A stretch of 48,488 nt of DNA from Synechococcales cyanobacterium (lineage in GTDB: Bacteria > Cyanobacteriota > Cyanobacteriia > Leptolyngbyales > Leptolyngbyaceae): NCBI GenBank assembly GCA_043739045.1, contig JAYUEW010000059.1, positions 1 through 48,488 on the forward strand. Direction: 5' to 3'. The position numbers and the translations under genes were made by a program. The notes below the pieces were generated by a model that did not search any database, had not been told where the DNA came from, and saw only the letters and a program-made list of their open reading frames with translations. Numbering within the stretch: position 1 is the stretch's first letter; every line of letters begins with the position of its first letter. Below are positions 30,553 to 45,865 of the stretch, piece by piece.

Positions 30553-30581
30553 CTTTGGACTTCTGTGTGTTCCGCAGTTAA
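30553..30581. repeat. Left copy of a perfect 29-bp direct repeat (putative attL core)
   Basis: CTTTGGACTTCTGTGTGTTCCGCAGTTAA is identical to 45837-45865. The 13 bp to the left are partly similar (8/13). Confidence 0.85.
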
Positions 30582-30603
30582 TCACCTGTACTACTTAGAC
30601 CAT

Positions 30604-30638
30604 AAAAACCGCTCAAAGCAACACTAAGAGCGGTTTTT
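30604..30638 (-). terminator. Rho-independent (bidirectional-looking) terminator ending the element's long minus-strand operon
   Basis: Stem AACCGCTC (30607-30614) pairs with GAGCGGTT (30628-30635). It is flanked by an A-run on one side and TTTTT on the other, 70 bp downstream of the last minus-strand gene. Confidence 0.7.
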
Positions 30639-30708
30639 ATATGTTTGAAAAATCTTTAGTTAGGTATAAATTGAGGCAATAGATAAACCTGGCAGCTACG
30701 TACATTTA

Positions 30709-31008
30709 TCATTCAGATCTAGCATCGTATCGCCCCTCTAGGTGGGACACTCTCTGACAAATTTCAGAGTGATTTTGTGCAGTTTTATCCACATGACTCT
30801 CCAGCGTATTTTGCAGTAAATCAACAGCGTTGGTAATCCGAGAAAAATCGCTTGCGGCGGCGTATTCGGCGGTTTTAGCCCTAATCCTACGCCTCGTAAA
30901 ATCGACAAATAAAGCGCTCCCTGATCCAACAGTGCCTGCGATCGTTGCCATTAAAGAAGCCATCTGTACTAAATCGTCTAGTTTTATTTCAATCATTTTC
31001 TTGTTCAT
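30709..31008 (-). CDS. Small membrane / coiled-coil protein (holin-like position, unknown function)
   Basis: The start is taken at MNKKMIEIK, 4 nt after the stop of the upstream gene. The longer ORF to 31086 overlaps that gene. It has one hydrophobic helix (MASLMATIAGTVGSGSALFV) and then a charged helical tail. Confidence 0.5.
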   Translation of the reverse strand: MNKKMIEIKLDDLVQMASLMATIAGTVGSGSALFVDFTRRRIRAKTAEYAAASDFSRITNAVDLLQNTLESHVDKTAQNHSEICQRVSHLEGRYDARSE

Positions 31009-31012
31009 CGGG

Positions 31013-31561
31013 TTATGTGAGTTTTTCGATCGTGAGGGTGTTGAAAATCTCAGCGCCAGCAAGAACAGAATCAGTACTGTAACCAACCCCGATAAGGGTT
31101 TTAATGCTGTACGGTAATGCCGTTGTTAGTTGCAAATCAACAAATCCACCACATATTCCATCTGTGTTGTCTACGCTTTCGTACAAATCTGATATTTTTG
31201 TAATGCCTTGATAAATCATGATTTTACGGCGTGTATTATATGGGTTTGTTGCCCATACTTTTATGCTAATTCTGTAAAGCGCTGTACTGTTTGGAGTAAA
31301 AACTCCATTAGTAAAGAGGTTTTGAGAATCAATAATTTCCGTGCTAAACGGGATAAGCACTTCAAGGCCCGCAGACAATACATTTGCATCTTGTCTTGCG
31401 TAAACCAATACACGAGATGTTGCTGCCCCGATCGTGGTATTCAGGACCACTTCACCTGAAGCGTTAGGAGGAAAAGTTATAGTATTATTCCCCGTAGGTG
31501 CCCATTTTAAAAGCCCGGTGAAAGCACCGTTAATCCATCGAGCACCGTTTACAAAACTCAT
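31013..31561 (-). CDS. Putative receptor-binding tip protein with a C1q/TNF-like jelly-roll signature
   Basis: 182 aa, immediately downstream of the tail-fibre gene. NGVFTPNSTALYRISIKVWA resembles the G.F.aP..G.Y.F core of C1q-like domains. Confidence 0.4.
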   Translation of the reverse strand: MSFVNGARWINGAFTGLLKWAPTGNNTITFPPNASGEVVLNTTIGAATSRVLVYARQDANVLSAGLEVLIPFSTEIIDSQNLFTNGVFTPNSTALYRISIKVWATNPYNTRRKIMIYQGITKISDLYESVDNTDGICGGFVDLQLTTALPYSIKTLIGVGYSTDSVLAGAEIFNTLTIEKLT

Positions 31562-31565
31562 ACGA

Positions 31566-32885
31566 TTAACCTGTTAGTCCCACTCTGTACTGGTTTGTGG
31601 TAGGAGCTACTGCAAAAGTGAACGTAGTAGTATTCGCGGTTGAGAATGCCACGGACGGGACCACAGAATTAAATGGGCTAGCTGCTTGAACACATACCCA
31701 ATTGGGGACAGCATTATTTAGGTTGTGCGTAACCGTAATGACGGTACTAGCTCCATCCCCAATCAATTGCGCAAATTTACGTGCGACAACAGCCGTATTA
31801 ATTGCAATGTCATCAGCATTGACGGTGATGCCAATCCCCGCCCCAGCATTTAAGACATTACCTGTCTTGGTTAGACCTAACCCCGCTGTAATTTGACCCG
31901 CGCCCGATGTCTGAATGAAAGTTAGTGCAGTTGTTCCTAAAACGATCGGGTTTGGAGTCGTTAGCGTGTAGCCATTGGATATGTTGTTGACGGAACCTTC
32001 CGATACGAAAACAAACATTCCGGGCTTGACTTCAGCCGTGGTATCAGAACTAGTGGCGCGAGTTAACGGAATTGCGGCCCCGTTAAAAACATACAGGCCA
32101 TTTTCCGCCGCCGTAGTCTGACCGATTAAGAGTATTTGATTTCCATTAACCAGGGTTACACCGTCAATCGCCGTACCGGGTGTTGCGATCGCAATGTTTC
32201 CCGTAGCAACGACTCGCGCTTCTCCTTTGTTGTTTCCCGTGGAAATCAAAGCGTCAGCGTAGTCTTTATTTACTGCGTCAGACCCAAGTGTGGGAGTTGC
32301 AACTGCTGTTATTCTTTGGTTGTTTAGTGAGACTGCGCTAGTTGGAGATGCTAATTGGTCTAGGCGAGATGCACGAACCTGTGTATCAAAATCGCTGATC
32401 GAGCTACTGGGTTGTGTTCCTGTATGGTTGGCTCGTGTCAGATAAAATAGTGCGGCCTGACTGTTTAGGGTTGTGGCATTTGAGGCCGTACCCGTGAGGT
32501 TCCCTGTTACAGTCCCAACTGCAATATTCCCACTAGCATCTCGCTGTACAAGGGCGTTTGGGGTGTTCGCGGCTGTAGACGCACCGAGTTTAATGAAATC
32601 CGAAATGGACATTGACCCCGCTAAACTTCCACTAGCAGGAGAAATGCTAATTGTGGGAGTTGTCCCACCAGTGGAGACGAGTGGGGCTGTAACAGCGACA
32701 GACACTACGGCACTAGTTGTAAAGTATTCCCAAGATACGCCGTTAAAAGACCCGGCTTTAAGAAGCGTAGTGTCAAAATATCTTTGACCACGTACAGGGT
32801 TGGACGGTGGGGCGGCTAAGTTTTGGCTAACAAGATTACGCGCCTCAACCCCCGCGAAGTCTAGATGATCGACGAGAAATGGCAT
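31566..32885 (-). CDS. Phage tail fibre protein
   Basis: 439 aa. It has PSNPVRGQRYFDT, LVQRDASGNIAVGTVTGNLTGTASNATTL, HTGTQPSSSISDFD and LNNQRITAVATPTLGSDAVNKDYAD. It also has IDGVTLVNGNQILLIGQTTAAENGLYVFNG...RATSSD and a C-terminal THNLNN...F.F beta-sandwich. All are motifs recurrent in phage tail fibres. Confidence 0.8.
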   Translation of the reverse strand: MPFLVDHLDFAGVEARNLVSQNLAAPPSNPVRGQRYFDTTLLKAGSFNGVSWEYFTTSAVVSVAVTAPLVSTGGTTPTISISPASGSLAGSMSISDFIKLGASTAANTPNALVQRDASGNIAVGTVTGNLTGTASNATTLNSQAALFYLTRANHTGTQPSSSISDFDTQVRASRLDQLASPTSAVSLNNQRITAVATPTLGSDAVNKDYADALISTGNNKGEARVVATGNIAIATPGTAIDGVTLVNGNQILLIGQTTAAENGLYVFNGAAIPLTRATSSDTTAEVKPGMFVFVSEGSVNNISNGYTLTTPNPIVLGTTALTFIQTSGAGQITAGLGLTKTGNVLNAGAGIGITVNADDIAINTAVVARKFAQLIGDGASTVITVTHNLNNAVPNWVCVQAASPFNSVVPSVAFSTANTTTFTFAVAPTTNQYRVGLTG

Positions 32886-32894
32886 GAGAAAGTC

Positions 32895-33200
32895 CTATAT
32901 ACAGTAAGCGATTCCGGCGAAAACAGAAGCAAAAGTGATGGTTGATTTATTTAGTCCATCGCTCAAAATAGAACCGTCAACCTTCATTCCATTGGTTGAA
33001 AATGTTGTAATTGATACGGGTTTATTTAAGTTATGGTTTATCGTCCATACGGTAGACGGGGCGGTTTGATCGTGAATATAAAAAGAGGCTTTGTTATTCA
33101 GATCTTGTCTAAGCTCATTTTTTGCAGTAGCTAGAGTATCCGCGATCGTCTGTTTCATAGCCCGGATAGTTTCACTGGGGACAGAGTTGAATACAGGCAT
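32895..33200 (-). CDS. Small structural-module protein with a tail-fibre-type beta-sandwich motif
   Basis: 101 aa. STVWTINHNLNKPVSITTFSTNG...STITFAS repeats the motif at the C-terminus of the 439-aa fibre (ITVTHNLNNAVPNWVCV...TTTFTFA). Confidence 0.5.
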   Translation of the reverse strand: MPVFNSVPSETIRAMKQTIADTLATAKNELRQDLNNKASFYIHDQTAPSTVWTINHNLNKPVSITTFSTNGMKVDGSILSDGLNKSTITFASVFAGIAYCI

Positions 33201-33203
33201 AAG

Positions 33204-33887
33204 TCAAGTCTGTGCATATTCGACAATTTGTAATGTCGTGGGGCTGAACGAGTCTGAAACCATCCATATATTTCCAATATCACCGCCATCTGAAATCCAT
33301 TGCCCACCGGGATACAGAGTTTCAGGGGCGTTATTTTTGGATATGTTGGGTTCAAACCCGATATAGATAGTTGAGCCTGATGAGTTGTACATTGTCGCAG
33401 AGCTACGATCGCGCCGCGATTCAAGAATCTGTACGGGAGTTGGCGAGGGATTGTATGTATAAAACCGACGTATTCGGCCTCGTATAAACTCCCCTGTATC
33501 TTCCTCGGGGCCGATATAACTCCACAAATCCAACTCAAAAGACGGGAACCACTTAGGAGGCGAGATCTTTAGCCGATACTCTCCTAAATCTTCTAAAAAA
33601 ATCAGCTTAGTGTCATTCAGGGTGAGACGTTCGGGCTTTATTAGAGCTTCTGAGAAATGGCTGTTAGAGCATTGCAGAAGCGGCCTTAGCAATCCCCCAT
33701 ATTTCCAGGTCGGAGAACCTGATAGAGAGGTCGTTTTAGCCGCCAGAATACGCCTATCAAGCAATAAAGGGACAACCTGTTCAGGAATAGCCTTCTGTAA
33801 GCTATAAATCATTCCAGCCGACAACCTGAAGGACCATAACGGAATCCAGTGTTGAGGATTACTAAGCTCTAATAAAAGCCGTCCCAT
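33204..33887 (-). CDS. Hypothetical structural-module protein
   Basis: 227-aa ORF, tightly packed (a 3-nt gap to each of its two neighbours). I recognise no family. Confidence 0.5.
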   Translation of the reverse strand: MGRLLLELSNPQHWIPLWSFRLSAGMIYSLQKAIPEQVVPLLLDRRILAAKTTSLSGSPTWKYGGLLRPLLQCSNSHFSEALIKPERLTLNDTKLIFLEDLGEYRLKISPPKWFPSFELDLWSYIGPEEDTGEFIRGRIRRFYTYNPSPTPVQILESRRDRSSATMYNSSGSTIYIGFEPNISKNNAPETLYPGGQWISDGGDIGNIWMVSDSFSPTTLQIVEYAQT

Positions 33888-33889
33888 AG

Positions 33890-34090
33890 TTAGCCTAAGG
33901 AGACAGAAATAGAGGCAGAAACCTTGGAAACTTCCGATTGAATGAATTGAGATTGGAAGACGCCTTGAAGGTATCGAGCGTCTTGGATACTTCCAATAAG
34001 TTTAGCTTCGGATGGATCTGCGACGAAAACAGAACCGTTGTAGAACGAGATTTCACCCGCTTCATTGACTTGCTTAATTACAAAATTCAT
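33890..34090 (-). CDS. Hypothetical small protein
   Basis: 66-aa ORF in operon register, 2 nt from the next gene. Confidence 0.4.
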   Translation of the reverse strand: MNFVIKQVNEAGEISFYNGSVFVADPSEAKLIGSIQDARYLQGVFQSQFIQSEVSKVSASISVSLG

Positions 34091-34155
34091 GATGATTTAA
34101 TGAGGTTGAAAGTGAACAAAACTCGGTAATCGAATTGACTAGGCAATCGAATTGA

Positions 34156-34743
34156 CTAGAACGTATAAATGCGACGGCGGGGGACCCGGACTTTAACAAT
34201 GTCATTTCCCGCGTATTTCAGTCCTACAAGCGTCTTGAACAAATTAGGCCCAAGTTTGGTAGGACTGCAAAGAACCTTGGCGGTTTGGAGTTTATTTCCT
34301 TTTTTGTAGACTAGATTAATAGCCACACAACCAGCCTCTAAAGCGTCGCTTTTACCGCTTCCTGCTAGTGTTTTTCCCGTTGGGACTTCTCCGCCTGCAG
34401 CACCTTTAGTAATCCCGAGCGTGGTGAGCAGACCTGACATGGCAGTAGCAACCATCTGAGTCTGGACAACAGTGTCATTTGTAATAGCAATAAAATGGGG
34501 GTCTCTTGCAGGCATGTTGTTTATTTGTGAGTGAACACCTGCATTCTTGCCAATGAGTACCAGCATCGTCAATATGTTTAACGATCGGGTCAATTGACCC
34601 GATAGAAACTTAGATGAACATCCGCTTTTTATTGTTCTCCAGTGGCAGCAATCGCCATTTACCCTTAAATTTTCGGGCAACGATGTAACCATGTGAGATG
34701 CCGTAATAAACGGAGGAAATAGAGTAGCTATAACGCTTGGCAT
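34156..34743 (-). CDS. Hypothetical protein (start uncertain; may begin at an internal Met, MPARDPHF...)
   Basis: 195-aa ORF. The C-terminal ~119 aa (MPARDPHFIAITNDTVVQTQ...VRVPRRRIYTF) look like a globular beta-rich protein. The N-terminal part is Cys/Ser-rich and may be non-coding. Confidence 0.4.
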   Translation of the reverse strand: MPSVIATLFPPFITASHMVTSLPENLRVNGDCCHWRTIKSGCSSKFLSGQLTRSLNILTMLVLIGKNAGVHSQINNMPARDPHFIAITNDTVVQTQMVATAMSGLLTTLGITKGAAGGEVPTGKTLAGSGKSDALEAGCVAINLVYKKGNKLQTAKVLCSPTKLGPNLFKTLVGLKYAGNDIVKVRVPRRRIYTF

Positions 34744-34817
34744 ACATAGCTACAGATATCATTGATGATTGTTGTTTGATTGATAACTTTATCGTCCTGA
34801 GATTTCCGCCATAGATT

Positions 34818-37256
34818 CTAAGCCGCTCCATCTTTAATCCCCCTAAAATCGACTGACCATACAGGTGTAAGGTCCTCATTCCCTTTCAGGAAGTAACGAG
34901 CCTCAACAGGATGCAGGGTTATTTCTGCAATCTTTTTCCCTCCTCTTAAACCAGGCTCAGGAACAACAGAATTCTTATATTCGGGTTCTAATCCTTGAAT
35001 GATTTTCGTCATTGCGTCCTTAGCATCTTTCACGGATTTAGCATTAAGCGTTATTTTTGAACCATCCTTGAATTCTAAAATGCATTGATATTGACCCTTA
35101 TTAAGGATTGGGAAGTCTGGCTTTTTAGTTGTTTTTTCATTCTTTCCCCAATGTGGAATAGTGATTGAGTATTTAGCAGATTTATACTTACCTTTGTCGT
35201 CTTTTTCTGCATACAGAACTACCAGCTTTGACATGTTTGCCCATTTAGCGGGCATCCAATCAGGGAGCACTAATAAAGGCTCTTTTTGCTCACATTGCAA
35301 CGCCAAAATATCAGCCTCATTCTCAAGCATCATTTTCCACGCAGCGGAAGACCCTGCAAGCACTGATACTGATACCTCTCCGAATACTATTTTGCCGTCT
35401 TTATCCCTAGAGCATCCGGTGAACTGCTTCACTTTGATAGTCTCTGGCCTAGTTTGGTTTCCGGTCCGCTTTGCACACGGATCGGCATCCTTGCACGGGT
35501 CAGTGCCGGGGATTGGTTGAGGCTGTGGTTGAGGCTGTGGGGCGGGGACGCCTCCACCCGATGGATCAAAAAACGGTTTATCTCTTTCCCTTGGGTCTGT
35601 TTTTGGATCGCTTCCTGGATTAATGCCCGGTTTTGGGCTTGGTGCCCCTGTTGCTATGGGGTCGTACCTAATAATGGTCTTTGAACCCGCTGCACTGCCG
35701 CTTGACGATCCACCCGGCGATCCACCCGGCGATCCACCCGGCTTGAAACCAGGCGATCGATCGGGTTCGGGTTGTTGCTCCCTTTTTGGTTTTATCTCGT
35801 TCTCCGGCTTCAATTCAGGCCGTGGGGCACGATCGCCACCCGGTGACGGCATAAGGCCGCCGAATGGGTTTCCGTTGGGGGTAGGGTTTCCGTCCGGTCC
35901 GGGTGATGGTGATGGATCTCTACCCGGCGCTGGCCTATTGTTAGGGTCAAGTCCAGGCGAGGGTGGGGCTGATGGGTCTGTTAGATTTCCAGGGGCGTTG
36001 CGTGGTCCTAATCCAGGATCGGGGCCGCCGTCTGGGACAAATTTTACTCCTGCAACATCAGCTCCATCGCTTTTATCCTCATATCCAGAATGAACCTGGA
36101 TCCAATCGCTGTACGGCTCTTTAAATTGCCAAACATAAAAACTTACACCAGGGAGGAACGTAGGCTCTAATACTCCTAGTTTCCAAATTCTGTCGGATGT
36201 GCCGATGTCGGCTTGCGGGAATGAATTCTCACCCTGGATTTGATTCCAGGACCACAGCCCCGGCGTTCCAGGCGCATAAATAGGTGCGAAAGGGTTGTCG
36301 GGTTCGGTATTCGGTCTATTCGGATCTCTGAATGGGGCATTGGGGTCCGGGGCCGGCTCACCCTTTTTTCTGCGTTTGAATGGGTCGTCTGCCAGGGGGT
36401 CTTGAAATTTTGGGCCGCCTGCCCATTCGGGAAGTAATCCCCTCAGCGCCTTTCCTGGATCTTTTGCAAACTCAGGAGACAGAATAATAGGCAAGAGCGC
36501 ACCCCCGATCGCACCAAGCGCTCCTGCACCCGCACCTCCGCCCCTCATCGCGGGTGCCCGGTTTGGACTGAATGGGGCTGGTCTAGTAGGGGTCCCAGAC
36601 GGTGCCGATGTCGGAGGGTTTCCCCTCGCTGCTTGTCCCGATGATGTGCCCCCACTACCCCATGGGGAGTTAGACATTGGGCGATTATTTTCGATTACGG
36701 GTGAAGATTTAGACGGGGAACCTCCACTAGGGCGAGAACTTCCGCCCCCGTTTCCTGAGTTGCTGCCCCCTGTACCGGATGGGGTGTTCCCTCTAGAGGA
36801 TTGTCCTGAGATTGTGTCCGCCGATCGCGGGTTGCTCTGGCCAGTCGGTGCGCTTGAACTGCCAGAAGAAGGCTGTCTAGCCATTTCTTGATATCTTCGT
36901 TCTGTTTGAATTCTGGCCTCTTGTTGCTCCGCCGCGATTCTTCTTGATTCTTGTCTCACTCTGGCCTCACGATCGGCTTCAGCTTGCCTAGCGCGTTCTG
37001 GAGCGTCAGCCTCATATCGCTGTCTAGCCGCCTCAGCCTCATTACGTTGGTCCTCAAGCCGTGAAGCCGCTTTTCTTGCGTCAGCTAAATCCGAAATTCT
37101 TTTGTTTTCAGCCTGAAGAGAATCCCAATTCCTATCAATTCGAGTGCGGTTTTGAGCATCAAGAAAACGGGCTTGCTCCGGTGTTATGTTCCCAGCTCTA
37201 ACCTCATTAGTTAGACGCTCATGGTATTGGACTGGATCGACAACGGTATAAGGCAT
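34818..37256 (-). CDS. Large Pro/Gly/Ser-rich protein with an N-terminal charged coiled coil and an internal TM segment
   Basis: I place the start at ATG 37254-37256 (MPYTVVDP), because the ORF-track start at 37277 lies inside a terminator hairpin. An R/E/A/Q coiled coil is followed by an S/G/P low-complexity region and a TM helix (GAGALGAIGGALLPIIL). Long P-rich linkers follow (PQPQPQPQP, GGSPGGSPGGSSSGS), then a ~230-aa globular C-terminal domain. Confidence 0.65.
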   Translation of the reverse strand: MPYTVVDPVQYHERLTNEVRAGNITPEQARFLDAQNRTRIDRNWDSLQAENKRISDLADARKAASRLEDQRNEAEAARQRYEADAPERARQAEADREARVRQESRRIAAEQQEARIQTERRYQEMARQPSSGSSSAPTGQSNPRSADTISGQSSRGNTPSGTGGSNSGNGGGSSRPSGGSPSKSSPVIENNRPMSNSPWGSGGTSSGQAARGNPPTSAPSGTPTRPAPFSPNRAPAMRGGGAGAGALGAIGGALLPIILSPEFAKDPGKALRGLLPEWAGGPKFQDPLADDPFKRRKKGEPAPDPNAPFRDPNRPNTEPDNPFAPIYAPGTPGLWSWNQIQGENSFPQADIGTSDRIWKLGVLEPTFLPGVSFYVWQFKEPYSDWIQVHSGYEDKSDGADVAGVKFVPDGGPDPGLGPRNAPGNLTDPSAPPSPGLDPNNRPAPGRDPSPSPGPDGNPTPNGNPFGGLMPSPGGDRAPRPELKPENEIKPKREQQPEPDRSPGFKPGGSPGGSPGGSSSGSAAGSKTIIRYDPIATGAPSPKPGINPGSDPKTDPRERDKPFFDPSGGGVPAPQPQPQPQPIPGTDPCKDADPCAKRTGNQTRPETIKVKQFTGCSRDKDGKIVFGEVSVSVLAGSSAAWKMMLENEADILALQCEQKEPLLVLPDWMPAKWANMSKLVVLYAEKDDKGKYKSAKYSITIPHWGKNEKTTKKPDFPILNKGQYQCILEFKDGSKITLNAKSVKDAKDAMTKIIQGLEPEYKNSVVPEPGLRGGKKIAEITLHPVEARYFLKGNEDLTPVWSVDFRGIKDGAA

Positions 37257-37290
37257 GAAAAATAAAAAAGCACCCAAATACGGGTGCTGT
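37257..37290 (-). terminator. Rho-independent terminator between the small 100-aa gene and the 812-aa gene
   Basis: On the minus strand the hairpin AGCACCC-GTATTT-GGGTGCT (37269-37288) is followed by TTTTTTATTTTTC and then directly by the ATG of the next gene. Confidence 0.7.
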
Positions 37291-37307
37291 GAGTGTGAGT
37301 TTTTGGA

Positions 37308-37610: not shown

Positions 37611-37678
37611 GATGAGTCTCAAATGGGACAACTCAAGTATACAGCCTGGTATAAAATATCACCTGCACTTTTCCCAGA

Positions 37679-37945: not shown

Positions 37946-38143
37946 ATTCTTAGATTTTCTAATGATTCTAGTATTATTCCCAGTCCAAGAACTAACCAGA
38001 ACTTCTGTCCAAAAACGCAGAAGTCCAAACCAAACAACAGGCTTTGTGACGATCGCCGCCGCTTATTGCGAGTGATGAATGAAGGGTTTCAAATATCGCT
38101 TTTTGGTGATGTAGTCCGTTTTTAGTCCAGTGGGTCATTCTCA

Positions 38144-38323: not shown

Positions 38324-39955
38324 TTAGGAAATAAGGCTTTGTAGCACATCCCAAATCTCATCCCGATTATCCCTTAAATACTCAGATTTCCTATCATTCT
38401 TAGCCCGATTCATGAAGTCGTTCTTGGTGATGCCGCCTGCGCTTTCACGCCTAGCAATCGACCACTGATAAGCAATCATGAGCGCTTCCCGTTTATTAAT
38501 ATCCGGGACCGATTCAATGAGGCCGATCGCCGGGTCTGCGAACGTTTCCAGGTAAGCACGGGTGAAAACTTCGGTTGCTGTTGCTGTGCCCCATTGGACC
38601 GACTCACCCGCAGGAACCGGAATCTCTCCCCATATTTTTAGCTTGGGGGTTGAGGCCGATCGCTTAGCCAGTTCGTCCGGCGGAACCGTGGGAATTGGTA
38701 GCCAAGATTGAGAATCGTGGGAGTAGGCGATCGTTTGGTATTGGTTGAACAGTGGGAAATCTGCACCAATCTTAGGAGCCTCAAAACTTCCATTCCCGCC
38801 GTTAGCAAATTTGAGGTTTTCCCGGCTTGCGAGGGTGTAATTTTTCAAACTCTTTAAGGCAGAACTTGAAACCCCGGTGCCATCGACCGTAGCGAGGGGT
38901 GTCATGACCCAAACAAATCGATCGACTGACTGACGCATTGAAGCTTCATGAACCAAGAAATCCATTAACCAGACTGAGAATGAGCGATTATCGTTGTTAA
39001 ATAGCTCGTCATCCAATTCAGACATTTTGACGGGTTTCAAACGAGATAGAGTACTAGATAATTCATCCAGGATGAACAGGATGGGAGCCGCTGGAGAGCT
39101 GGGCAGGCTCTGCCAGTGGCGAATCATTGAATAGAGGGATTGTGCCGCGCGGGTGGGATTTTGGTCTAGGTCAGGATTGAAGAATTGGTCGCAGGTCTCC
39201 CAATACCAATGCTCTTTTGGATCTTGTTTGGGCGTGTAGCCGTAAAGGATTCCGGTTGGATATTTCTGCTTGTAGGCAATCATGGCGATCGTAATCATGA
39301 TGCCTTTCCCTGTTCGCGGCGGCGCTGCGACATAGGACGATCGCACTGGATTGACCATGGAATCAATAGCCGTTGGAATCTTGCAAGTTCCGCCCGCGCT
39401 TGTGGGTGCGACTGCCTGTAATGCAATAGTTCCAGGCAATGCAGCCGATTCATGGGGAAGGTCTTTGAGTTGCTGAATCTCTTCCATGAATGCCGAAATC
39501 GTCCGACGCTTGGGCTTTTTGTTCATGGCCAGACAGAGCCTGCGAGCGGCGGCGGTGATGGTCTGCCCGTCTTGGTAGGCTTGCAAGACTTCAGAGACAG
39601 CCGCGTCAGGTCCAACGATTTCGGCATAACGGACAAGTTCAGGCTCTTTCAACGCATGGGCCAGAACTCCCACATCTTTGATATATTCGGCATCCTTGCC
39701 CTTTTGAATGGCTCCATCTACAGCGTTGTAGATGAAATAAAGTCCGGCGATGGCACCAATTATAGGGATTCCTGAAATTGAAGACATTCCGAATCCAATG
39801 GCTAAGCCTGACACTAGGGGAAAGGCAGAACTTGACACCACGCCGTTTAAGGCTTCATCGGCAATGTCTTCGATTTGGTCTAGTTTCTCGTTGGATAGTT
39901 TGGAATATTTCTGTAATAGCCGGGGAATACGATCGGTGGAGATGCTTGATAACAT
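38324..39955 (-). CDS. Membrane-anchored P-loop NTPase resembling the FtsK/HerA and type IV coupling protein (VirD4/TraG) families
   Basis: 543 aa. Hydrophobic Gly-rich helices lie at about residues 43-78. Walker A is AAPPRTGKG (about residues 210-218; compare APTRSGKG of VirD4/TraG-type proteins) and Walker B is ILFILDELS. Confidence 0.65.
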   Translation of the reverse strand: MLSSISTDRIPRLLQKYSKLSNEKLDQIEDIADEALNGVVSSSAFPLVSGLAIGFGMSSISGIPIIGAIAGLYFIYNAVDGAIQKGKDAEYIKDVGVLAHALKEPELVRYAEIVGPDAAVSEVLQAYQDGQTITAAARRLCLAMNKKPKRRTISAFMEEIQQLKDLPHESAALPGTIALQAVAPTSAGGTCKIPTAIDSMVNPVRSSYVAAPPRTGKGIMITIAMIAYKQKYPTGILYGYTPKQDPKEHWYWETCDQFFNPDLDQNPTRAAQSLYSMIRHWQSLPSSPAAPILFILDELSSTLSRLKPVKMSELDDELFNNDNRSFSVWLMDFLVHEASMRQSVDRFVWVMTPLATVDGTGVSSSALKSLKNYTLASRENLKFANGGNGSFEAPKIGADFPLFNQYQTIAYSHDSQSWLPIPTVPPDELAKRSASTPKLKIWGEIPVPAGESVQWGTATATEVFTRAYLETFADPAIGLIESVPDINKREALMIAYQWSIARRESAGGITKNDFMNRAKNDRKSEYLRDNRDEIWDVLQSLIS

Positions 39956-40638
39956 TAGGCTTCCTCATTGCGGTAGAAGAGCCATTGACCGACGACGATG
40001 ACCAGGAGCAACATGACTTCAAAGCTGAAAAGCATAATGGCCAAGTCACGGGCGTTGTCTCCATTTATCCAGATTGGATTCATTGATTTCATCCAAAATC
40101 CGAAATCACTCCAATTCTTCCAAACTGGATAGGCTTTCAGTCCTACGGCTAGGTCAAAGGCATAGGCCGCTAGGCTTAGAGCGGCGGCATACCTCATAAA
40201 GAAGAATGGAATTCTACTGATTCGCTTGACGGCGCGGCGGGTGTCTGAATTTTTACTGTCACTGTGTTTGTCCAGGTCATCAGTCAGGGCGATCGATGTT
40301 CTAACGGCGTTCTTTTGCGCTTTGGCATCCATAGAAATGACAATCCAGAGGCATTCCAGAATCTGAACAGGTGCCCAAATTAGGATGGCTCCGATCGTGG
40401 CGACTCCCATTGATAAACGGTTAAACAATGGGCCTATTAAGGGAATATCTAAGACCCATGAAGCATTCCCCCCAGCGCTTGATAGCAGCATTGCATAGGG
40501 CTTGATATTGATTAGGGCGATCGTAAATAGGCCAAACAACAAACCCAGAAATAAGACCCAGATGAGCGCTTGGAGAATCCAAGAATCTTCGACATCACGG
40601 GCGGCTCGGCTATTTTTGAAGCGATTGAATACAGTCAT
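39955..40638 (-). CDS. Polytopic integral membrane protein
   Basis: 227 aa with about 5 predicted TM helices. Its stop overlaps the start of the ATPase gene, suggesting translational coupling. Confidence 0.6.
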   Translation of the reverse strand: MTVFNRFKNSRAARDVEDSWILQALIWVLFLGLLFGLFTIALINIKPYAMLLSSAGGNASWVLDIPLIGPLFNRLSMGVATIGAILIWAPVQILECLWIVISMDAKAQKNAVRTSIALTDDLDKHSDSKNSDTRRAVKRISRIPFFFMRYAAALSLAAYAFDLAVGLKAYPVWKNWSDFGFWMKSMNPIWINGDNARDLAIMLFSFEVMLLLVIVVGQWLFYRNEEA

Positions 40639-40639
40639 C

Positions 40640-41161
40640 TTATGAACCTACTTGTGGACGGTTTGCGGTGGGGTAGCGTTTCATCATGGTGGTGATGCGC
40701 TTTTGGTCTGGAGTGTTCAATAGGTCGGTGACGACGGCGTAGGGTTTGGCTTGTTTGGCCAAAGTTCCGACATTTCCGTAGGCATCACAGACCGTTGTTC
40801 CGGCTGGCAGATAGTCGGTCTGATTGGGTTTAAGATTCCTGTTTTTGTTCCAACGCATCCAGAAATCTCCGCTTAAAACGCCTACACCCTCGGTTAGGGG
40901 CTGATAGATGTTTTCACCAGGTTTCATATAAAAGACCCCTTCACAGCCTGCGTCGAATCGCTCATTAGCCAGGGCGATCGATTGCTTCTGTAAGGCGTGA
41001 TTCTGTTGCTTTGATTCAAGTCGTAATTGCATAGGGTCGGGGTTGAATGCCCCTCGTTGCAGGCCGATCGTCAATCCACCCAAGATAGCGAGGCAACTGA
41101 TACAGCCGATCACTGTTCCCTTGGGGTCGTCAGCTAGTTGCTCCAAAATTAGATTCATCAT
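40640..41161 (-). CDS. Membrane-anchored (single N-terminal TM) exported-domain protein
   Basis: 173 aa with an N-terminal TM helix (GTVIGCISCLAILGGLTIGL). It overlaps the upstream gene by 4 nt (ATGA). Confidence 0.55.
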   Translation of the reverse strand: MMNLILEQLADDPKGTVIGCISCLAILGGLTIGLQRGAFNPDPMQLRLESKQQNHALQKQSIALANERFDAGCEGVFYMKPGENIYQPLTEGVGVLSGDFWMRWNKNRNLKPNQTDYLPAGTTVCDAYGNVGTLAKQAKPYAVVTDLLNTPDQKRITTMMKRYPTANRPQVGS

Positions 41162-41526
41162 GCTGTTATCTCTGCTTCGATTGTGGACATTAAGGCGAGG
41201 TTGTTTGAGTGGGGTAGTTCTGCCCCATCGCCGAAAAAACTTAGGTCTATTGCTCCAATTCGTTGCCTAGCTTTGATGTAGGAGCTTTGGAGTCCCAAGC
41301 GAACAATGCTTTCAGCGCGAGTTGCAAAGTCGTCTGAGAGTTCGTCGATTTTGGCTTGAAGGTCTGCTAGTTCCTTTTCCTGGCGGTCTCTTGCTGCTTT
41401 CAGGAGAGTTAGGCGATCGGTGGTAGGTTCGATCGGCTCAGTCGGTTCTAGGGACCGTTCTTCGGTATTTTTTAAGGCCATGGCTTTGGCGGCTCCGGGG
41501 TTAAAGCGTTTTGAACTGGTAGGCAT
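41158..41526 (-). CDS. Coiled-coil protein
   Basis: The start is taken at the ATG (MPTSSKRF), which is preceded by a strong GGGAGGA Shine-Dalgarno sequence. The central helix is LTLLKAARDRQEKELADLQAKIDELSDDF. Confidence 0.55.
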   Translation of the reverse strand: MPTSSKRFNPGAAKAMALKNTEERSLEPTEPIEPTTDRLTLLKAARDRQEKELADLQAKIDELSDDFATRAESIVRLGLQSSYIKARQRIGAIDLSFFGDGAELPHSNNLALMSTIEAEITA

Positions 41527-41560
41527 TTTATTGGTCCTCCCGATGGGTTTAAACAATGAC

Positions 41561-41836
41561 CTAAATAGCCGCGAAGAACTCTGATGATTCGTCTCTCAGT
41601 GCATCCATGGCCGCATCTTCAGGGTCGGGCATGTCATCAAGAGTTTCCCGGATTGATTGCTTGACGGCGGAAAGCTCCAACATCTCCAGAAGGGAATCAG
41701 CCTGATCGATCGCCATCTTTGAAGCTGAATCAAACTGGAGTGCAGGGAAATCAGGGTTCGCATACATTCCACCCAAAATTAGGGCGGCGAAATGTTCTCG
41801 CTTGGTCATGCCGATCTGGTTTGGTGTGCTGTTCAT
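41561..41836 (-). CDS. Small phage-type protein (REHFAA..L.GM motif)
   Basis: The ORF is open to 41965, and I prefer the ATG at 41836 (MNSTPNQIGMTKREHFAALILGGMYANPD). The R(D/E)(Y/H)FAA...G motif recurs in small prophage proteins. This is the first gene of the minus-strand arm. Confidence 0.45.
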   Translation of the reverse strand: MNSTPNQIGMTKREHFAALILGGMYANPDFPALQFDSASKMAIDQADSLLEMLELSAVKQSIRETLDDMPDPEDAAMDALRDESSEFFAAI

Positions 41837-42167
41837 AAGTTGGTGAAGTTGGTGAATTTGGTGGGCAGATGACAGGTGAGAACAATTACCTAATTCGCCT
41901 GAGTGGTAGGGGCGATCGGTGAACAGAGCGATGGGCCGAGAATAAACGCACCGGAAAAGCCACAAACCCCGCCATAGACGAGCAGTAAGAGCAGGAACGC
42001 GGGTGCTTTGATTGCAACGTAGTTTGTCATTGTTAATCCTGGTAGTGAGGGGGGGAAAGGACCGATCGTCCTACCACGGCGATCGGCCCGGTTGTCCTTT
42101 TAACTGACCACTTTGCATTTCCCAGGGCTAAACCTGCTAGAGACGACGCTGTAGGCTGCTACGTGTT

Positions 42168-42310
42168 TCAAAGTTCTGAACTTCGACTCAATCAATCTAG
42201 CATCAAACCAACGCAAAAATCCGAACTTTGATTATGCCAATAACTTATGAATAAAGGCTTTAATGATAGTACTTATTAATCAAAGTTCTGAACTATAAAT
42301 CAAAGTTCTG
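42168..42310. promoter_or_regulatory. Divergent control region with four operator-like repeats (CAAAGTTC core)
   Basis: TCAAAGTTCTGAAC lies at 42168-42181 and an inverted copy, CCGAACTTTGATT, at 42221-42233. AATCAAAGTTCTGAAC lies at 42278-42293 and AATCAAAGTTCTG at 42298-42310. The region sits between the divergent arms, ending 41 bp before the RHH gene. Confidence 0.7.
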
Positions 42311-42351
42311 GGGTAAGATGCCTGAAACACGGTTTAATAAGGGGACTGAAA

Positions 42352-42612
42352 ATGATGGCCACAATTGTTCGGATGCCAACAAAATTAAAGAAAATTACGG
42401 TGGTTCTAGATCCTGAACTGGAACAGGCTCTAGAGAGATATGCGATGCGCTGTCAGCGGAGTTTGTCGCAGAGTGCGTCTATCCTGCTTGAACAGTCCTT
42501 GATGGTGACTGGTGATTTGAAGTGCGCCATTGATAGAAGAGAGAAGCGCGGCGGTAAGAGACAAGGTTCTGGACGCAAGCCGGAAGACAATATCTCTGAA
42601 GAATCGGCGTAA
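42352..42612 (+). CDS. Ribbon-helix-helix (CopG/Arc-like) transcriptional regulator
   Basis: 86 aa. KKITVVLDPELEQALERYAMRCQRSLSQSASILLEQSL has the beta-strand, helix, helix RHH pattern, followed by a basic tail. Confidence 0.7.
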   Translation: MMATIVRMPTKLKKITVVLDPELEQALERYAMRCQRSLSQSASILLEQSLMVTGDLKCAIDRREKRGGKRQGSGRKPEDNISEESA

Positions 42613-42682
42613 AAGCCATCATCCAGGCAAAAAAAACGATCGCCCTTGTGAGCCGATCGCCTAACAAACTTTAAGGAATTTT

Positions 42683-42886
42683 ATGACTAGAAATACGGTT
42701 GGGTCAGCTCTCTATGGGCTGATATTTCACGATGGAAAAATGTATGTCATTTACGCAGTTGCTTTGATACAGGCAATAAGCTATTGCACTGAGAAGCCCC
42801 GTAGAGTCATCGTTTTTGAGGGAGATGTAGCAACCTGCATTGACGAGGCAACCCTAGAAACATGCTGGAACAGACTGAACTACTAA
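42683..42886 (+). CDS. Hypothetical small protein
   Basis: 67-aa ORF between the regulator and primase genes, on the same strand. Confidence 0.4.
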   Translation: MTRNTVGSALYGLIFHDGKMYVIYAVALIQAISYCTEKPRRVIVFEGDVATCIDEATLETCWNRLNY

Positions 42887-42916
42887 CCCATCTACTAAAG
42901 ACAAGAGAGCCGATCG

Positions 42917-45034
42917 ATGAACATGGCAGGCAGCAACAACGGGACAGCACAAACGCTACCCAAATTTGACATTCTCAAGCATTTAGACAAACTCACCACA
43001 GACGGCGGCAGTACCAGCAGTAAAAACGAGATTTCCTACCATTGCCCGGTCTGTGGTTCTGGTAACTTCAAAATTCACGTAGACGGCAAGAGCAGAGGCA
43101 AATATCAGACATGGGGCTGTGACTGTGCCAAATCCGAGAGAGGCAAGCAGGCAATTAAAGACAAACTGGCCCCGCTGACATGGGACAAGCCTTTGAGAGA
43201 AAAGGGCACCGCCACTTATACCTATCAAGCCCTGTATGAAGGAAGGCCGATCGACATCGCTCAGGTTAGGAGGGCCGACGACGGTGACGGGAAGCGCAGG
43301 TTCAACCAGTGGCATAAAGACGGGAATAGATGGGTTTCAGGCGTACCGGATGAAGTGAAGGCCCTAATTCACCTCTATCAAATTTTTAACGAGATAAATC
43401 AGAGTGCGATCGCTAACGGTCAAACCATCCTGATTGTTGAGGGGGAAGGGAAGGTTGATTTACTTTTGTCGTTAGGCATTGCAGCAACCTGTTCGATCGG
43501 CGGCGGTGGAAAGTGGACACAGTACGGCTATCCCAACTACTTGCAGGATTTGGACGGCGCGGCGGTTGTGATTTGTCCCGATCGGGACCAGCCAGGAATC
43601 AAACATGCTGACGAAGTAGCCCTAGACTTCCCGGACGCAAAATGGCTATATCCGGCACCAACGTCCTATCTATGGGAACGCCTAATCCAACCAAACAAAG
43701 GATTCGACATAAAAGATTGGATCAACGACGACGGCGCGACAAAGGCCGACATATTGAACGCGATCGGCGATCGGCGCGAACTCATCCTCTCAATACCGAA
43801 GCCATCGGAGCCACCGAAATTACAACTTGGGCCACCAATGGGGACGATCGCCGCGAGTAATTCAGACGTTCCCCCACCCGTAGCGAGTCGTAAGGCAAAT
43901 CGCGGCATGACGACCCTACAGCAAGACGCTGAGATGATAGAAAACGAGGTTGGGCACTTGCTGACCTTTGACACAGCTACCCAAAACTTCTACCTAGAAG
44001 GCAAACGGCTAACCCTTGGGCGAGAACGGCTCCTCCTTTCCACTAAATACGGGCTGCCCATAAAAGCGGGGAAGGAGGACGTAATGGACATTTGTGTGCA
44101 ACTCGCCCTAGGAAACAGCTTCAACTCAGTAAGGGACTACCTGAACAAATGCCGGAATACGACCGGTATAAAACTACTTGATATCTGTCAAAAGTTTTTC
44201 AACAATCCAGACCCATTACAAGCTGTATTCCTCAAAAAGTGGTTAATTTCGGCAGTCGCAAGGGCATATGACCCAGGGTGTCAAGCGGATGAGGTCATGA
44301 TTCTACAAGGAGGACAAGGTCAGCGAAAATCCAGCTTCTTCCTTGAACTCGCCCCCCAGAAGGAATGGGTCAACGGGAATGGTTTACAAGGCGGGAAAAT
44401 TAATGATGAAGAGATTCGGAAAGCTCAAAGAACTTGGTTAATCGAAGTTCCAGAGATAGATAAGACCTTCAAGAAGTCGTGCTCAAGTGAGCTAAAAGCA
44501 TTCATGACACAGCGTGGAGATTGGCTTAGGCAGTTGTACGAAAAGATGCCCGAACTCTATCTACGCAACTCTGTAATGGGGGGAACCACGAACGAACCCG
44601 AACTTTTCACAGACGACACAGGAAATAGGCGTTTCACCGTGGTGAAGGTATGCGTAGACCTTCTCGATAGCTCATGGCTAAGGGCGAATCGTGACAGCAT
44701 ATGGAGTGAGGCTCGGGATGCGTATCTTGCTGGAGAAATATGGCACCTCACCCCCGAGGAAAAACTTCTCCATGCACGGCAGAACATGCAATGGAAAATC
44801 GAACACCCATGGCACGGCACGATCGAGCATTACCTCAGGTATGAGACAGAGGTTACTATCCCGGAAATCCTTCATGTCGTTATCAAGTTGAGCCTCTCAG
44901 AACTTAAAGGAAAGTCAGAACAGATGCAGGTTTCAGGAATTTTAAAAGCTCTGGGATTCACAAAGACGAATCGGCGTGGTTCCTACATGGAGGCAAATTC
45001 ACCAATTTGGATAAGGACTGCTGATAATTTCTAA
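42917..45034 (+). CDS. Bifunctional primase / VirE-D5-type P-loop helicase replication protein
   Basis: 705 aa. An N-terminal Zn finger (CPVCGSGNFKIH...WGCDC) is followed by a TOPRIM domain (ILIVEGEGKVD, ICPDRDQPG). The C-terminal VirE-like NTPase has Walker A (QGGQGQRKSSFF) and Walker B (WLIEVPEID). Confidence 0.8.
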   Translation: MNMAGSNNGTAQTLPKFDILKHLDKLTTDGGSTSSKNEISYHCPVCGSGNFKIHVDGKSRGKYQTWGCDCAKSERGKQAIKDKLAPLTWDKPLREKGTATYTYQALYEGRPIDIAQVRRADDGDGKRRFNQWHKDGNRWVSGVPDEVKALIHLYQIFNEINQSAIANGQTILIVEGEGKVDLLLSLGIAATCSIGGGGKWTQYGYPNYLQDLDGAAVVICPDRDQPGIKHADEVALDFPDAKWLYPAPTSYLWERLIQPNKGFDIKDWINDDGATKADILNAIGDRRELILSIPKPSEPPKLQLGPPMGTIAASNSDVPPPVASRKANRGMTTLQQDAEMIENEVGHLLTFDTATQNFYLEGKRLTLGRERLLLSTKYGLPIKAGKEDVMDICVQLALGNSFNSVRDYLNKCRNTTGIKLLDICQKFFNNPDPLQAVFLKKWLISAVARAYDPGCQADEVMILQGGQGQRKSSFFLELAPQKEWVNGNGLQGGKINDEEIRKAQRTWLIEVPEIDKTFKKSCSSELKAFMTQRGDWLRQLYEKMPELYLRNSVMGGTTNEPELFTDDTGNRRFTVVKVCVDLLDSSWLRANRDSIWSEARDAYLAGEIWHLTPEEKLLHARQNMQWKIEHPWHGTIEHYLRYETEVTIPEILHVVIKLSLSELKGKSEQMQVSGILKALGFTKTNRRGSYMEANSPIWIRTADNF

Positions 45035-45036
45035 AA

Positions 45037-45266
45037 AGGTGTGTAAGGTGTGTGTTTATATATTTATTTAAGAAAAAAGGTATGTATAGAGAGGGTTTCA
45101 GCCTTTACACACCTTGCACACACCCCATACACACCTCAATGTAGGTGTGTGATTACACACCTTTAGCCACACACACACCTCTATACACACCTTTTAGCAG
45201 AGGTGTGTAAGACCTAAATCCAATCTGTGCAAGGGTTTCAGAGATTTCATACACACCCGCACACCT
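45037..45266. repeat. Iteron field (AGGTGTGT / ACACACCT), candidate origin of replication
   Basis: Exact AGGTGTGT occurs at 45037, 45046, 45143 and 45201. Exact ACACACCT occurs at 45107, 45129, 45155, 45173 and 45185. Variants lie at 45118, 45251 and 45260. A flanking AGGGTTTCAG repeat lies at 45092 and 45232, and an AT-rich stretch at 45055-45090. Confidence 0.8.
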
Positions 45267-45307
45267 CTCACAGCTTTTTCACAGCAAACTATATCTGAGG
45301 TTTCGTT

Positions 45308-45700
45308 ATGCCGATGAACCGATCGCTCTATCCCGAAAACTGGGAAGAAATAGCCCTGAAAATCAAGCGCAAGGCGAATTGGACTTGTCAGAAATGCCGA
45401 CGACCATGCCGAAGACCGGGAGAGTCGATCGACGCTTTGGCTAGTCGTGTTAGAGAGTGGCCAGATGCGTTTGAAGGGGTCCATTCTGGTTTGGATTCTA
45501 GGGACTGGGTGGTGTTTAAACGCGGTAGGTTTTTGCTTACCGTGGCCCATCTTGACCACCGCCCTAGTAATTGCAAGCCGCGTAATTTACGAGCATGGTG
45601 CGCACCATGTCATTGTCGCTACGACCTCTCTCAGATGGAGCGTAAAAAACTGATAAAACTTGAGTTAGCTGGTCAGCTCAGTCTGTTTTCTTTGACGTAA
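45308..45700 (+). CDS. HNH endonuclease
   Basis: 130 aa. It has WTCQKCRRPC ... LTVAHLDHRPSNCKPRNLRAWCAPCHCRYD, the HNH/CxxC zinc-finger layout. Confidence 0.8.
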   Translation: MPMNRSLYPENWEEIALKIKRKANWTCQKCRRPCRRPGESIDALASRVREWPDAFEGVHSGLDSRDWVVFKRGRFLLTVAHLDHRPSNCKPRNLRAWCAPCHCRYDLSQMERKKLIKLELAGQLSLFSLT

Positions 45701-45722
45701 AAAACAGCATGGTGCGCACCAT
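45593..45722. repeat. Two copies of a 16-bp repeat containing the perfect palindrome ATGGTGCGCACCAT
   Basis: GCATGGTGCGCACCAT lies at 45593-45608 and 45707-45722. The second copy is nested between the inverted CGTAAAAAA (45696-45704) and TTTTTTACG (45732-45740). Confidence 0.8.
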
Positions 45723-45836
45723 TTCCGCTCATTTTTTACGCTGTTGTACTAGGAATAAACGCCATGGCCTAAATGTGGATCACGATATTCCGCGTTTTCT
45801 GGTTTTGGCAAAATTGCACGATCGCCTATTTCTGGC

Positions 45837-45865
45837 CTTTGGACTTCTGTGTGTTCCGCAGTTAA
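45837..45865. repeat. Right copy of the perfect 29-bp direct repeat (putative attR core)
   Basis: CTTTGGACTTCTGTGTGTTCCGCAGTTAA is identical to 30553-30581. Confidence 0.85.

Follow-up and report, generated by a model that had tools for sequence, protein, structure and literature searches.

The element analysed here is a 15,324-bp insert in a contig of 48,488 nt from a Synechococcales cyanobacterium (JAYUEW010000059.1; hereafter the window). To our knowledge, the cyanophages described so far are almost all tailed. Next to a control and replication arm on the plus strand, the element carries two operons on the minus strand: module 1, which encodes a membrane ATPase, and module 2, which includes fibre genes. 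Pleolipoviruses, plasmavirus L2 and plasmid-vesicle systems have small circular plasmid-related genomes, spike or membrane proteins in place of a capsid, and a P-loop NTPase; our element differs from them in that its host is a walled, diderm cyanobacterium and its fibres are of the tailed-phage type. With the PM2-like corticoviruses, the autolykiviruses and the PRD1-type tectiviruses it shares a 10-15 kb genome, temperate integrated forms and small membrane proteins accompanied by a P-loop ATPase; these viruses have beta-sandwich vertex spikes, and the structural matches of the element's protein g5 include the PM2 spike P1, at low TM-scores. However, its ATPase is membrane-anchored, 543 aa long and RecA/Rho-like rather than of the FtsK/HerA (A32) type, no double jelly-roll capsid was detected in it by profile searches, its replication genes are those of a primase-helicase with iterons, and its modules can each exist alone. 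P4/PICI satellites resemble it by their size of 10-15 kb, by the tRNA-directed tyrosine integrase that relatives of the element carry, by a primase-helicase replicon, by small repressors and by the absence of capsid and terminase genes, but the element has 8-10 conserved structural-looking genes and a membrane ATPase trio, no genes of Sid/Psu/Cpm/TerS type, and no known helper. The pSAM2-type actinomycete integrative and conjugative elements (TraB) also come as small integrative and plasmid forms in filamentous hosts, with a tRNA-directed tyrosine integrase (found in our relatives) and a single membrane motor that bears a C-terminal helical domain; here the ATPase is not of the FtsK family by sequence or fold, and a fibre module is present. 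Finally, CyRepA (DUF3854) replication proteins have been described (PMC10079941), and a circle of about 15.6 kb that carries relatives of module 1 also encodes ParA, a ribbon-helix-helix (RHH) protein and a Rep of CyRepA type, whereas the window element is integrated, has module 2 and encodes a primase-helicase of the VapE type. As a small temperate element, integrative or plasmid, that replicates through a primase-helicase, it belongs to a familiar general kind; its two large functional modules are unfamiliar.

We tentatively assign the insert, as an intact member that lacks an integrase, to a hitherto undescribed family of temperate, non-tailed, particle-forming virus-like elements, small in size (10-20 kb) and found in Synechococcales/Leptolyngbya-type cyanobacteria; we would give this reading somewhat less than an even chance. 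The data fit a family built of three exchangeable units, one for control and replication, one membrane motor and one fibre-bearing extracellular unit. We ranked this non-tailed, particle-forming reading first because the module 2 core is confined to these elements and absent from tailed-phage collections, because the distal genes are swapped like receptor-binding proteins and relatives add cell-wall enzymes, and because the minimal form, of 10.3 kb, is a circular replicon with its own integrase. The recurrence of all three units in relatives, the fibre domains of g3 and g4, the beta-sandwich fold of g5 and purifying selection on the genes also count for it.

The insert occupies positions 30542-45865 and is bracketed by two 40-nt direct repeats, which are 90% identical (4 mismatches) and share an exact core of 29 nt:

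30542-30581: left direct repeat, attL-like, with the exact core at 30553-30581
45826-45865: right direct repeat, attR-like

A 28-nt core of the repeat is found in exactly two copies in the window, against 0 expected by chance. Outside the repeats lie ordinary host genes, encoding Uma2, an MBL-fold hydrolase, PAP2, a PAS histidine kinase, and a phosphoketolase with an acetate kinase. The initial annotation, made from the sequence of the window, had delimited the element at 30553-45865, thereby beginning with the exact core and including the whole right-hand repeat; its description of a discrete foreign element of 15.3 kb is borne out by the repeats at both ends and the host genes beyond them. 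The CGATCG hexamer is hyper-abundant on both sides of the boundary: the host flank has 4.6 copies per kb and the element 3.3. The full HIP1 octamer GCGATCGC is less frequent within the element, at 0.13 vs 0.52 per kb. The discrete insert between significant repeats, the host flanks and the CGATCG signature common to element and host count for the reading proposed above.

Module 2, closed by a terminator, contains the following features:

37679-37945, minus strand: g10, 88 aa, with an N-terminal transmembrane segment by hydropathy, first gene of module 2
37308-37631, minus strand: g9, about 100 aa, whose positional counterparts in relatives are weakly similar
34818-37277, minus strand: g8, 819 aa (812 from the ATG), Pro/Gly-rich
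34610-34879, minus strand: small conserved open reading frame (ORF) between g8 and g7, with a helix-turn-helix/excisionase-like pattern judged by eye
34156-34515, minus strand: g7, highly conserved core protein of 119 aa with an invariant C-terminal VRVPRRRxYxF
33890-34090, minus strand: g6, conserved core protein of 66 aa
33204-33887, minus strand: g5, 227 aa, two beta-sandwich domains in its structure model
32895-33200, minus strand: g4, 101 aa, with a small fibre-type domain at its C-terminus
31566-32885, minus strand: g3, 439-aa phage fibre or decoration-type protein
31013-31561, minus strand: g2, 182-aa distal protein, seen in the window copy only
30709-31086, minus strand: g1, small hydrophobic and coiled-coil protein at the end of module 2, with a likely ATG start at 31008
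30604-30639: hairpin AAAAACCGCTC...GAGCGGTTTTT, terminator downstream of module 2 that could act bidirectionally, read from the sequence

All element ORFs were searched with Pfam, PHROGs, NCBIfam and PADLOC, and these searches were informative for g3, g4, g16, g18 and g19 only; structure models cover g5 and g11. The tail-fibre protein of the initial annotation is indeed clear, since g3 matches phrog_2647 at 1e-87, several tail-fibre PHROGs and 345 phage records, its N-terminus resembling tail fibres. Both g3 and g4 share domains with the fibres of tailed phages. The label of C1q-like protein given to g2 found no match in Pfam, PHROGs, NCBIfam or the PDB and stays unverified, and the length of g7 had to be corrected from 195 to 119 aa. 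The N-terminus of g8 is charged and helical, a Gly-zipper transmembrane segment spans aa 248-266, the linkers are rich in Pro, Gly and Ser, and the C-terminal domain (aa ~600-819) is conserved. We considered that this C-domain could be a fused equivalent of a 275-aa protein of relatives, an idea that is unsupported because hhalign gave it a probability of 1.8%. The small ORF upstream of g7 and its homologues had no Pfam match, and its helix-turn-helix label comes from the sequence pattern alone.

The g5 model (pLDDT 85) shows two beta-sandwich domains. Its best matches among solved structures were XepA of PBSX, the PM2 spike P1, and the STIV entries 3j31 chain P and 4ind, the latter entitled 'The Triple Jelly Roll Fold and Turret Assembly'; in a viral structure library, the top matches were uncharacterised phage proteins. 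The matches among solved structures are spike or vertex proteins and XepA, not capsid proteins, at TM-scores of 0.2-0.3. By profile search, the N-domain of g5 (g5N) is a protein family of its own, with 434 cluster representatives of typically 150-160 aa; of 60 members scanned, none carried a Pfam domain and one matched a PHROG labelled 'virion structural protein'. Among 5.8 billion cluster-representative proteins we found only 14 full-length relatives of g5 and 36 cluster relatives of g7. A conserved N-domain followed by a variable C-part, as in g5, is what anchored receptor-binding or vertex proteins usually show.

Comparison with related loci (numbered L001 and so on) defined a module 2 core that extends from the g8 C-domain through the small ORF, g7, g6 and g5 to the N-terminus of the gene that follows. 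This core occurs without module 1 in L022 (JGI 3300046777) and L023 (Logan SRR32618897), two circular permutations that are 99.98% identical and whose terminal overlaps (127 and 30 nt) both yield a circle of 10,319 bp, from two independent sources. The circle also encodes a 206-aa integrase, a 401-aa P-loop protein and a Holliday-junction-resolvase-like protein, and no membrane ATPase; L020 and L021 are similar to it. More distant elements preserve this gene order but are made of other parts. In L030, a long Pro-rich protein with a helical region is followed by proteins of 274, 169 and 100 aa, a g5N-type protein, fibres, a weak GH39 match and a transmembrane coiled-coil protein, then by an integrase and an AAA_25 replication protein. 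Module-2-like clusters without replication or integrase genes were observed in the large chromosomal contigs L026 and L028. At the g8 position, L026 encodes a 773-aa protein (6747-9068) with heptad-like repeats, a long collagen (G-X-Y) tract and a hydrophobic helical C-terminal region that is common to L030 and L037.

The genes that follow g5 are swapped among relatives while an N-terminus MPVFN(S/P) is retained, a pattern typical of receptor-binding proteins; g4 has the N-terminus MPVFNS in common with proteins of 235-275 aa that relatives encode after g5. The module is closed by similarly built proteins, with an N-terminal hydrophobic segment and then a coiled coil, in L017 (104 aa), L030 (118 aa) and L037 (108 aa). 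It ends with a Peptidase_M15_3 in L036 (3527-4174) and with a 156-aa protein in L037 (4207-4677), in which we judged a YkuD-like motif by eye; no cell-wall enzyme was recognisable in the window element. M23 peptidases adjoin related modules in L028 (1258-2526) and L034 (9871-11067).

Another explanation of these structural-looking genes would be a phage satellite, self-replicating and provided with its own adsorption or tail-tip proteins, that is packaged in the capsids of a helper tailed cyanophage, its HNH nuclease aiding cos-type cutting by the helper terminase. The initial annotation had offered this reading; it is still viable, the primase-helicase and the HNH gene by the att site being in line with it, but we consider it unlikely. 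The size of 10-15 kb, the tRNA-att integrase of relatives, the VapE/TOPRIM primase-helicase and the small regulators are typical of P4/PICI, and profile searches found no capsid, portal or terminase genes. The HNH gene (phrog_1571) adjoins the att site, and HNH genes of this type sit by terminase genes and cos sites in HK97-like phages. In addition, the g3 and g4 domains are common to tailed-phage fibres, and the long coiled-coil, collagen-repeat protein that relatives carry at the g8 position, followed by a 275-aa protein, recalls a tape measure with its distal tail protein. However, none of the known satellite markers (Sid/Psu, CpmAB, Ppi, TerS) was found in Pfam or PHROGs, where the HNH nuclease was the only candidate, and no tube or sheath protein was recognised. 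Of the other satellite traits, the element has a primase-helicase replicon of its own, and an integrase was not found in the window. Furthermore, g7, g6 and g5N are neither borrowed from a known helper nor matched to one, since they have no homologue in 50,697 phage genomes or IMG/VR; the membrane ATPase trio of module 1 has no role in known satellites; and the HNH gene is seen in the window copy only, relatives having an integrase there.

Module 1 lies upstream of module 2 on the same strand:

41561-41965, minus strand: g15, small soluble protein, first gene of module 1, with a likely start at 41836
41158-41556, minus strand: g14, 132-aa coiled-coil protein, conserved upstream of the membrane trio
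40640-41161, minus strand: g13, 173-aa bitopic membrane protein with an extracytoplasmic domain, by hydropathy
39955-40638, minus strand: g12, 227-aa polytopic membrane protein, by hydropathy
38324-39955, minus strand: g11, 543-aa membrane-anchored P-loop ATPase with a RecA-like core and a helical C-terminal domain that varies among relatives
38146-38187: terminator hairpin closing module 1, read directly from the sequence

The hairpins at 38146-38187 and at about 30604-30639, each followed by a T-run, close the two minus-strand operons, which agrees with the two terminator-delimited modules and the gene content that had been annotated. In g11, an N-terminal transmembrane segment comes first and is followed by the Walker A sequence APPRTGKG, the P-loop being at aa 214. 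In its AlphaFold2 model (mean pLDDT 75, 80-93 in the ATPase core), the N-terminus forms two long helices, the core is RecA-like (alpha/beta) and the C-terminal domain is helical; at least two unrelated versions of this last domain exist among relatives. A Foldseek search against the PDB returned RecA, Rho, RAD51 paralogues, a DnaB-type helicase, FlaH and F1/V1 at E ~1e-3. We had considered that g11 might be a packaging ATPase of FtsK/HerA type, and this idea was dropped because its model matched generic RecA/Rho folds only. No Pfam match was obtained for g11 and a PDB profile search with the ATPase family was empty; a Zot/pI-type morphogenesis ATPase, which with a small hydrophobic coat protein is the hallmark of Inoviridae, had no match in Pfam or PHROGs either. 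On its model, g11 is best described as a membrane-tethered RecA-type motor and not demonstrably as a viral packaging ATPase or a coupling protein.

The ATPase family comprises 82 protein clusters, all annotated as hypothetical and none with a Pfam domain. Among the GTDB species-representative genomes it is confined to cyanobacterial metagenome-assembled genomes (MAGs) labelled Synechococcales, three of which carry it on three contigs each; a second metagenome scan with the ATPase profile added two loci only. The g13-g12-g11 trio is syntenic in every locus. Module 1 is found without module 2 on the circular plasmid-like contig of about 15.6 kb, with the CyRepA-type (DUF3854) Rep, ParA, RHH and Uma2, and in L011, an 11.8-kb element bounded by tRNA-Val and a 52-nt copy of the 3' end of this tRNA. 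DUF3854 Reps were found in relatives L001-L003, L019, L024 and L037. The plasmid copies L001 and L002/L003 are 99.9% identical; they differ in the transposase (Transposase_mut or DDE_Tnp_1) that has been inserted at one shared position downstream of the ATPase operon.

The wide spread of module 1 brings in a second explanation, that of a non-viral integrative or plasmid-like element spreading by cell contact, in which module 1 would be a minimal translocase, functionally comparable to TraB of Streptomyces AICEs, pumping double-stranded DNA between neighbours in a filament and module 2 would supply adhesins or fibres for contact with the recipient. Module 1 is the most widespread unit, with several copies per MAG, and both the CyRepA/ParA circle and the tRNA-Val element lack structural genes. 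The build of g11 (membrane anchor, RecA-type motor, variable helical C-terminal domain) points the same way, as does a distant homologue on a plasmid of Leptolyngbya BL0902, which lies in an operon of small genes ending with an M23 peptidase. On the other hand, Pfam scans found no relaxase, no T4SS/VirB4/T4CP component and no FtsK_SpoIIIE or FtsK-like TraB domain, and the g11 fold is generic RecA/Rho, not FtsK/TrwB. By tblastn against PLSDB, the ATPase had only three distant plasmid matches, all typed as non-mobilisable, and g7 had none. Moreover, module 2 is independent of a membrane pump, because the 10.3-kb circle carries its core without any membrane ATPase, and two features are typical of viruses, namely the swapped distal domains of the fibre genes and the lysin genes of relatives. 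Transfer by contact seems to us improbable on this evidence. PADLOC had no match in module 1 and recognised no known anti-phage defence set in the element.

The integrated relatives share a backbone of integrase, primase-helicase, 67-aa gene and RHH gene, divergent from module 1; their tyrosine integrase adjoins tRNA-Arg (L015), tRNA-Phe (L016) or tRNA-Val (L011). The closest relative, L017, has an ATPase 97% identical to g11 and carries module 1 together with g7-g6-g5. Its order is g7-g6-g5, distal genes of 275 and 104 aa, a tyrosine integrase by a tRNA 3' fragment, a 1125-aa primase-helicase, a 68-aa gene, RHH and module 1. Both modules also occur in the deeply diverged L037, beside a DUF3854+VapE primase-helicase; it carries g7, g6 and a g5N-type protein as well as remote, significant homologues of g13, g12 and g11, with identities of 22-24% for g11, 24% for g12, 30-35% for g13 and 55% for g7. 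Since so diverged a relative has both, their pairing is old or recurrent and not a one-off chimera; since each occurs without the other, neither module needs the other. Together, the relatives make up a modular family of Synechococcales-type cyanobacteria.

The control and replication arm is encoded on the plus strand:

42168-42310: divergent control region, in which four TCAAAGTTC boxes may serve as operators of the RHH regulator
42352-42612, plus strand: g16, RHH regulator, TraY/RHH_5/Arc-like with weak scores (Pfam, PHROGs)
42683-42886, plus strand: g17, 67 aa, kept upstream of the primase in relatives L015, L016 and L017
42917-45034, plus strand: g18, 705-aa primase-helicase with zinc finger, TOPRIM and VapE domains
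45036-45260: iteron field, putative replication origin, with 11 ACACACC/GGTGTGT copies
45308-45700, plus strand: g19, HNH nuclease (phrog_1571, 2e-21)

The initial annotation had read this arm as an RHH regulator, a 67-aa ORF, a zinc-finger/TOPRIM/VirE-type primase-helicase, iterons and an HNH nuclease, a content that our analysis confirms. The g18 protein matches VapE (PF05272) at 5e-55, primase PHROGs over aa 161-281, and PDB entry 7pds. The 11 iterons are gathered at 45038-45251, within 215 bp, vs 2 copies in the rest of the 48-kb window. A Rep of the CyRepA type (DUF3854 + DEXDc) was not found in the window, whose Rep is the TOPRIM/VapE protein. The only PADLOC match among the element ORFs was the HNH motif (ZorE-like, partial).

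In L017, the tyrosine integrase lies at the exact position of the window HNH gene g19. The missing integrase is a trait of the window copy and not of the family, because relatives have a tyrosine integrase with a tRNA att site. We considered integration by XerCD at a dif-type site, as the integrase is missing, and set the idea aside because by eye the repeat has no dif-like dyad symmetry and the relatives use tyrosine integrases at tRNA genes. Scans asking whether the att site falls in an RNA gene found 0 tRNA genes and 0 Rfam matches in the window. Because the HNH nuclease stands where relatives have the tyrosine integrase, the window copy most likely needs a sibling element to provide an integrase in trans, or is at present immobile.

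It could also be, for the window copy only, that the insert is an immobilised, domesticated or decaying remnant, which lost its integrase, does not excise, and whose genes are transient or benefit the host. This would agree with the absence of an integrase or a remnant of one, with the divergence of the att repeats (4 mismatches in 40 nt, 29-nt exact core), with the att core having no match, as empty site or circular junction, in the fetched relative loci and JGI metagenome contigs, and with the clusters of L026 and L028, which have module-2-like genes and no replication or integrase genes. However, 20 of 20 ORFs are intact and tightly packed, and the iterons, operator boxes and terminators are preserved. 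Selection is strongly purifying, the dN/dS values being 0.07-0.3 for g5-g7 and g11-g13 of the window against their orthologues (except g5 against L017, L020 and L023, where synonymous sites are saturated), a measure that reports selection along the whole lineage and not recent decay of the window copy. In addition, sibling elements in the same kind of genome could give integrase in trans. The genes of the element are functional in this lineage, and we regard a remnant as very unlikely. The initial annotation had also argued against decay; its view is upheld by the intact ORFs, by the dN/dS values, and by the recurrence of the gene sets on circular replicons and tRNA-integrated elements.

Several observations have to be weighed against the particle-forming reading. 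Searches of Pfam, PHROGs, NCBIfam, PADLOC and PDB sequences found no capsid, portal, terminase, tail tube, tape measure, endolysin, Zot, relaxase or integrase; at profile-HMM (hidden Markov model) sensitivity, this agrees with the annotated lack of ordinary HK97 capsid, portal and terminase. No capsid protein was identified, with folds checked for g5 and g11 only, no double jelly-roll capsid profile matched the element ORFs, and g1, g2 and g5-g15 were silent in Pfam, PHROGs, NCBIfam and PDB sequence searches, the searches against the PDB with g2, g3 and g8 and with the ATPase, g7 and g5N families being empty or at chance level. The window copy has no integrase, and tblastn detected no integrase remnant in the window. 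FtsK, HerA, TrwB and A32-type proteins were not among the top 50 Foldseek PDB matches of g11, the TM-scores of g5 are low (0.2-0.3) for a beta-sandwich fold that is generic, and modules 1 and 2 are each found alone, so that the co-operation proposed between them is not obligatory. The ATPase, g5 and g7 families were absent from INPHARED and from IMG/VR, the latter scanned with a profile of each family and, for the N-domain of g5, with a degenerate DNA motif. Likewise, g5 and two members of the g5N family had no tblastn match in the 50,697 phage genomes. The literature that we searched, on non-tailed cyanobacterial prophages and on cyanobacterial satellites, holds no description of these families, nor do the curated libraries.

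The first interpretation of the initial annotation, a membrane-containing virus, is affected by these results in two ways. Its analogy with a PRD1/PM2-type packaging ATPase fails, as structure searches found no FtsK/HerA relation of g11 but a generic RecA/Rho fold, and as the modules are separable; its spike-like component gains from the two beta-sandwiches of g5 and their spike/vertex matches, but these are weak. None of its three readings (membrane-containing virus, satellite, remnant) can be proven from sequence alone.

In the mechanism that we envisage for a particle-forming element, the RHH protein would bind the four boxes of the control region and keep both arms silent. On derepression, the TOPRIM/VapE primase-helicase would fire the ACACACC iteron origin. 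The products of g13, g12 and g11, for which fold, transmembrane segments and conserved gene order were observed, may form a membrane complex that moves the DNA of the element across or into the membrane. Module 2 would build the extracellular, cell-binding part of the putative particle: g8 as an envelope-spanning, TolA/TonB-like Pro-rich protein, g7, g6 and g5 as the conserved core, and g4, g3 and g2 as interchangeable distal fibres that set host range. The last gene, g1, would be a terminal membrane protein, a place after which a cell-wall hydrolase comes in relatives, presumably for exit or entry.

A bolder version appears doubtful to us: these elements would be a new cyanobacterial virus lineage or virus-plasmid hybrids, whose particle is built on no known capsid fold. 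The RecA-type pump would load or transfer the genome, and g7, g6, g5, g8 and the exchangeable fibres would deliver it, with the units also living apart, as a plasmid and as a 10-kb mini-virus, and perhaps complementing each other within one host. Standard virus-detection pipelines depend on hallmark genes, and Pfam, PHROGs, PADLOC, IMG/VR and INPHARED all miss this family. Should it form particles, it would give cyanobacteria a lineage of non-tailed viruses, perhaps with a new solution for capsid or packaging. If it does not, it would be a satellite of a new class, equipped for adsorption by itself, or a minimal system of DNA transfer for filamentous cyanobacteria, in which natural plasmid transfer is poorly understood. 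In each case, the existence of module 1 alone, module 2 alone and both together offers a natural experiment on the exchange of functional units between plasmids and viruses.

Finally, we examined the non-coding stretch between the modules and the flanks of the element.

37946-38323: region between modules 1 and 2, with an inverted att-core copy, inverted GGACT motifs, a hairpin and a tandem repeat

An inverted copy of part of the att core (18 nt) lies at 38012-38029, and inverted GGACT motifs at 38109-38130. A perfect 13-nt tandem repeat GGTAACGGTAATC (x2.8) is found at 38196-38232, between the terminator hairpin of the ATPase gene and the start of module 2. Several contigs of relatives break just downstream of the ATPase gene. 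We observed that GGACT[AT] motifs (30557, 38021, 38112, 38123, 45841, 45943 and 45954) are grouped at both att repeats and in the right flank, their inverted copies being grouped in the inter-module gap beside the inverted att-core copy. These clusters may be arm sites of a recombinase or the relic junction of a co-integrate.

Genes of Uma2-family nucleases flank the element on both sides (29738-30400 and 47880-48482), and Uma2 genes are also present on the related plasmids or elements L001, L011 and L019. Near the right-hand Uma2 gene we noted a pair of 84-nt repeats (46952-47035 and 47858-47941), 79% identical and 906 bp apart. On the left, GC skew reaches +0.41 to +0.45 at 28000-30000, values unmatched elsewhere in the window, over a stretch that spans and exceeds the gene of the MBL-fold hydrolase (28058-29119).

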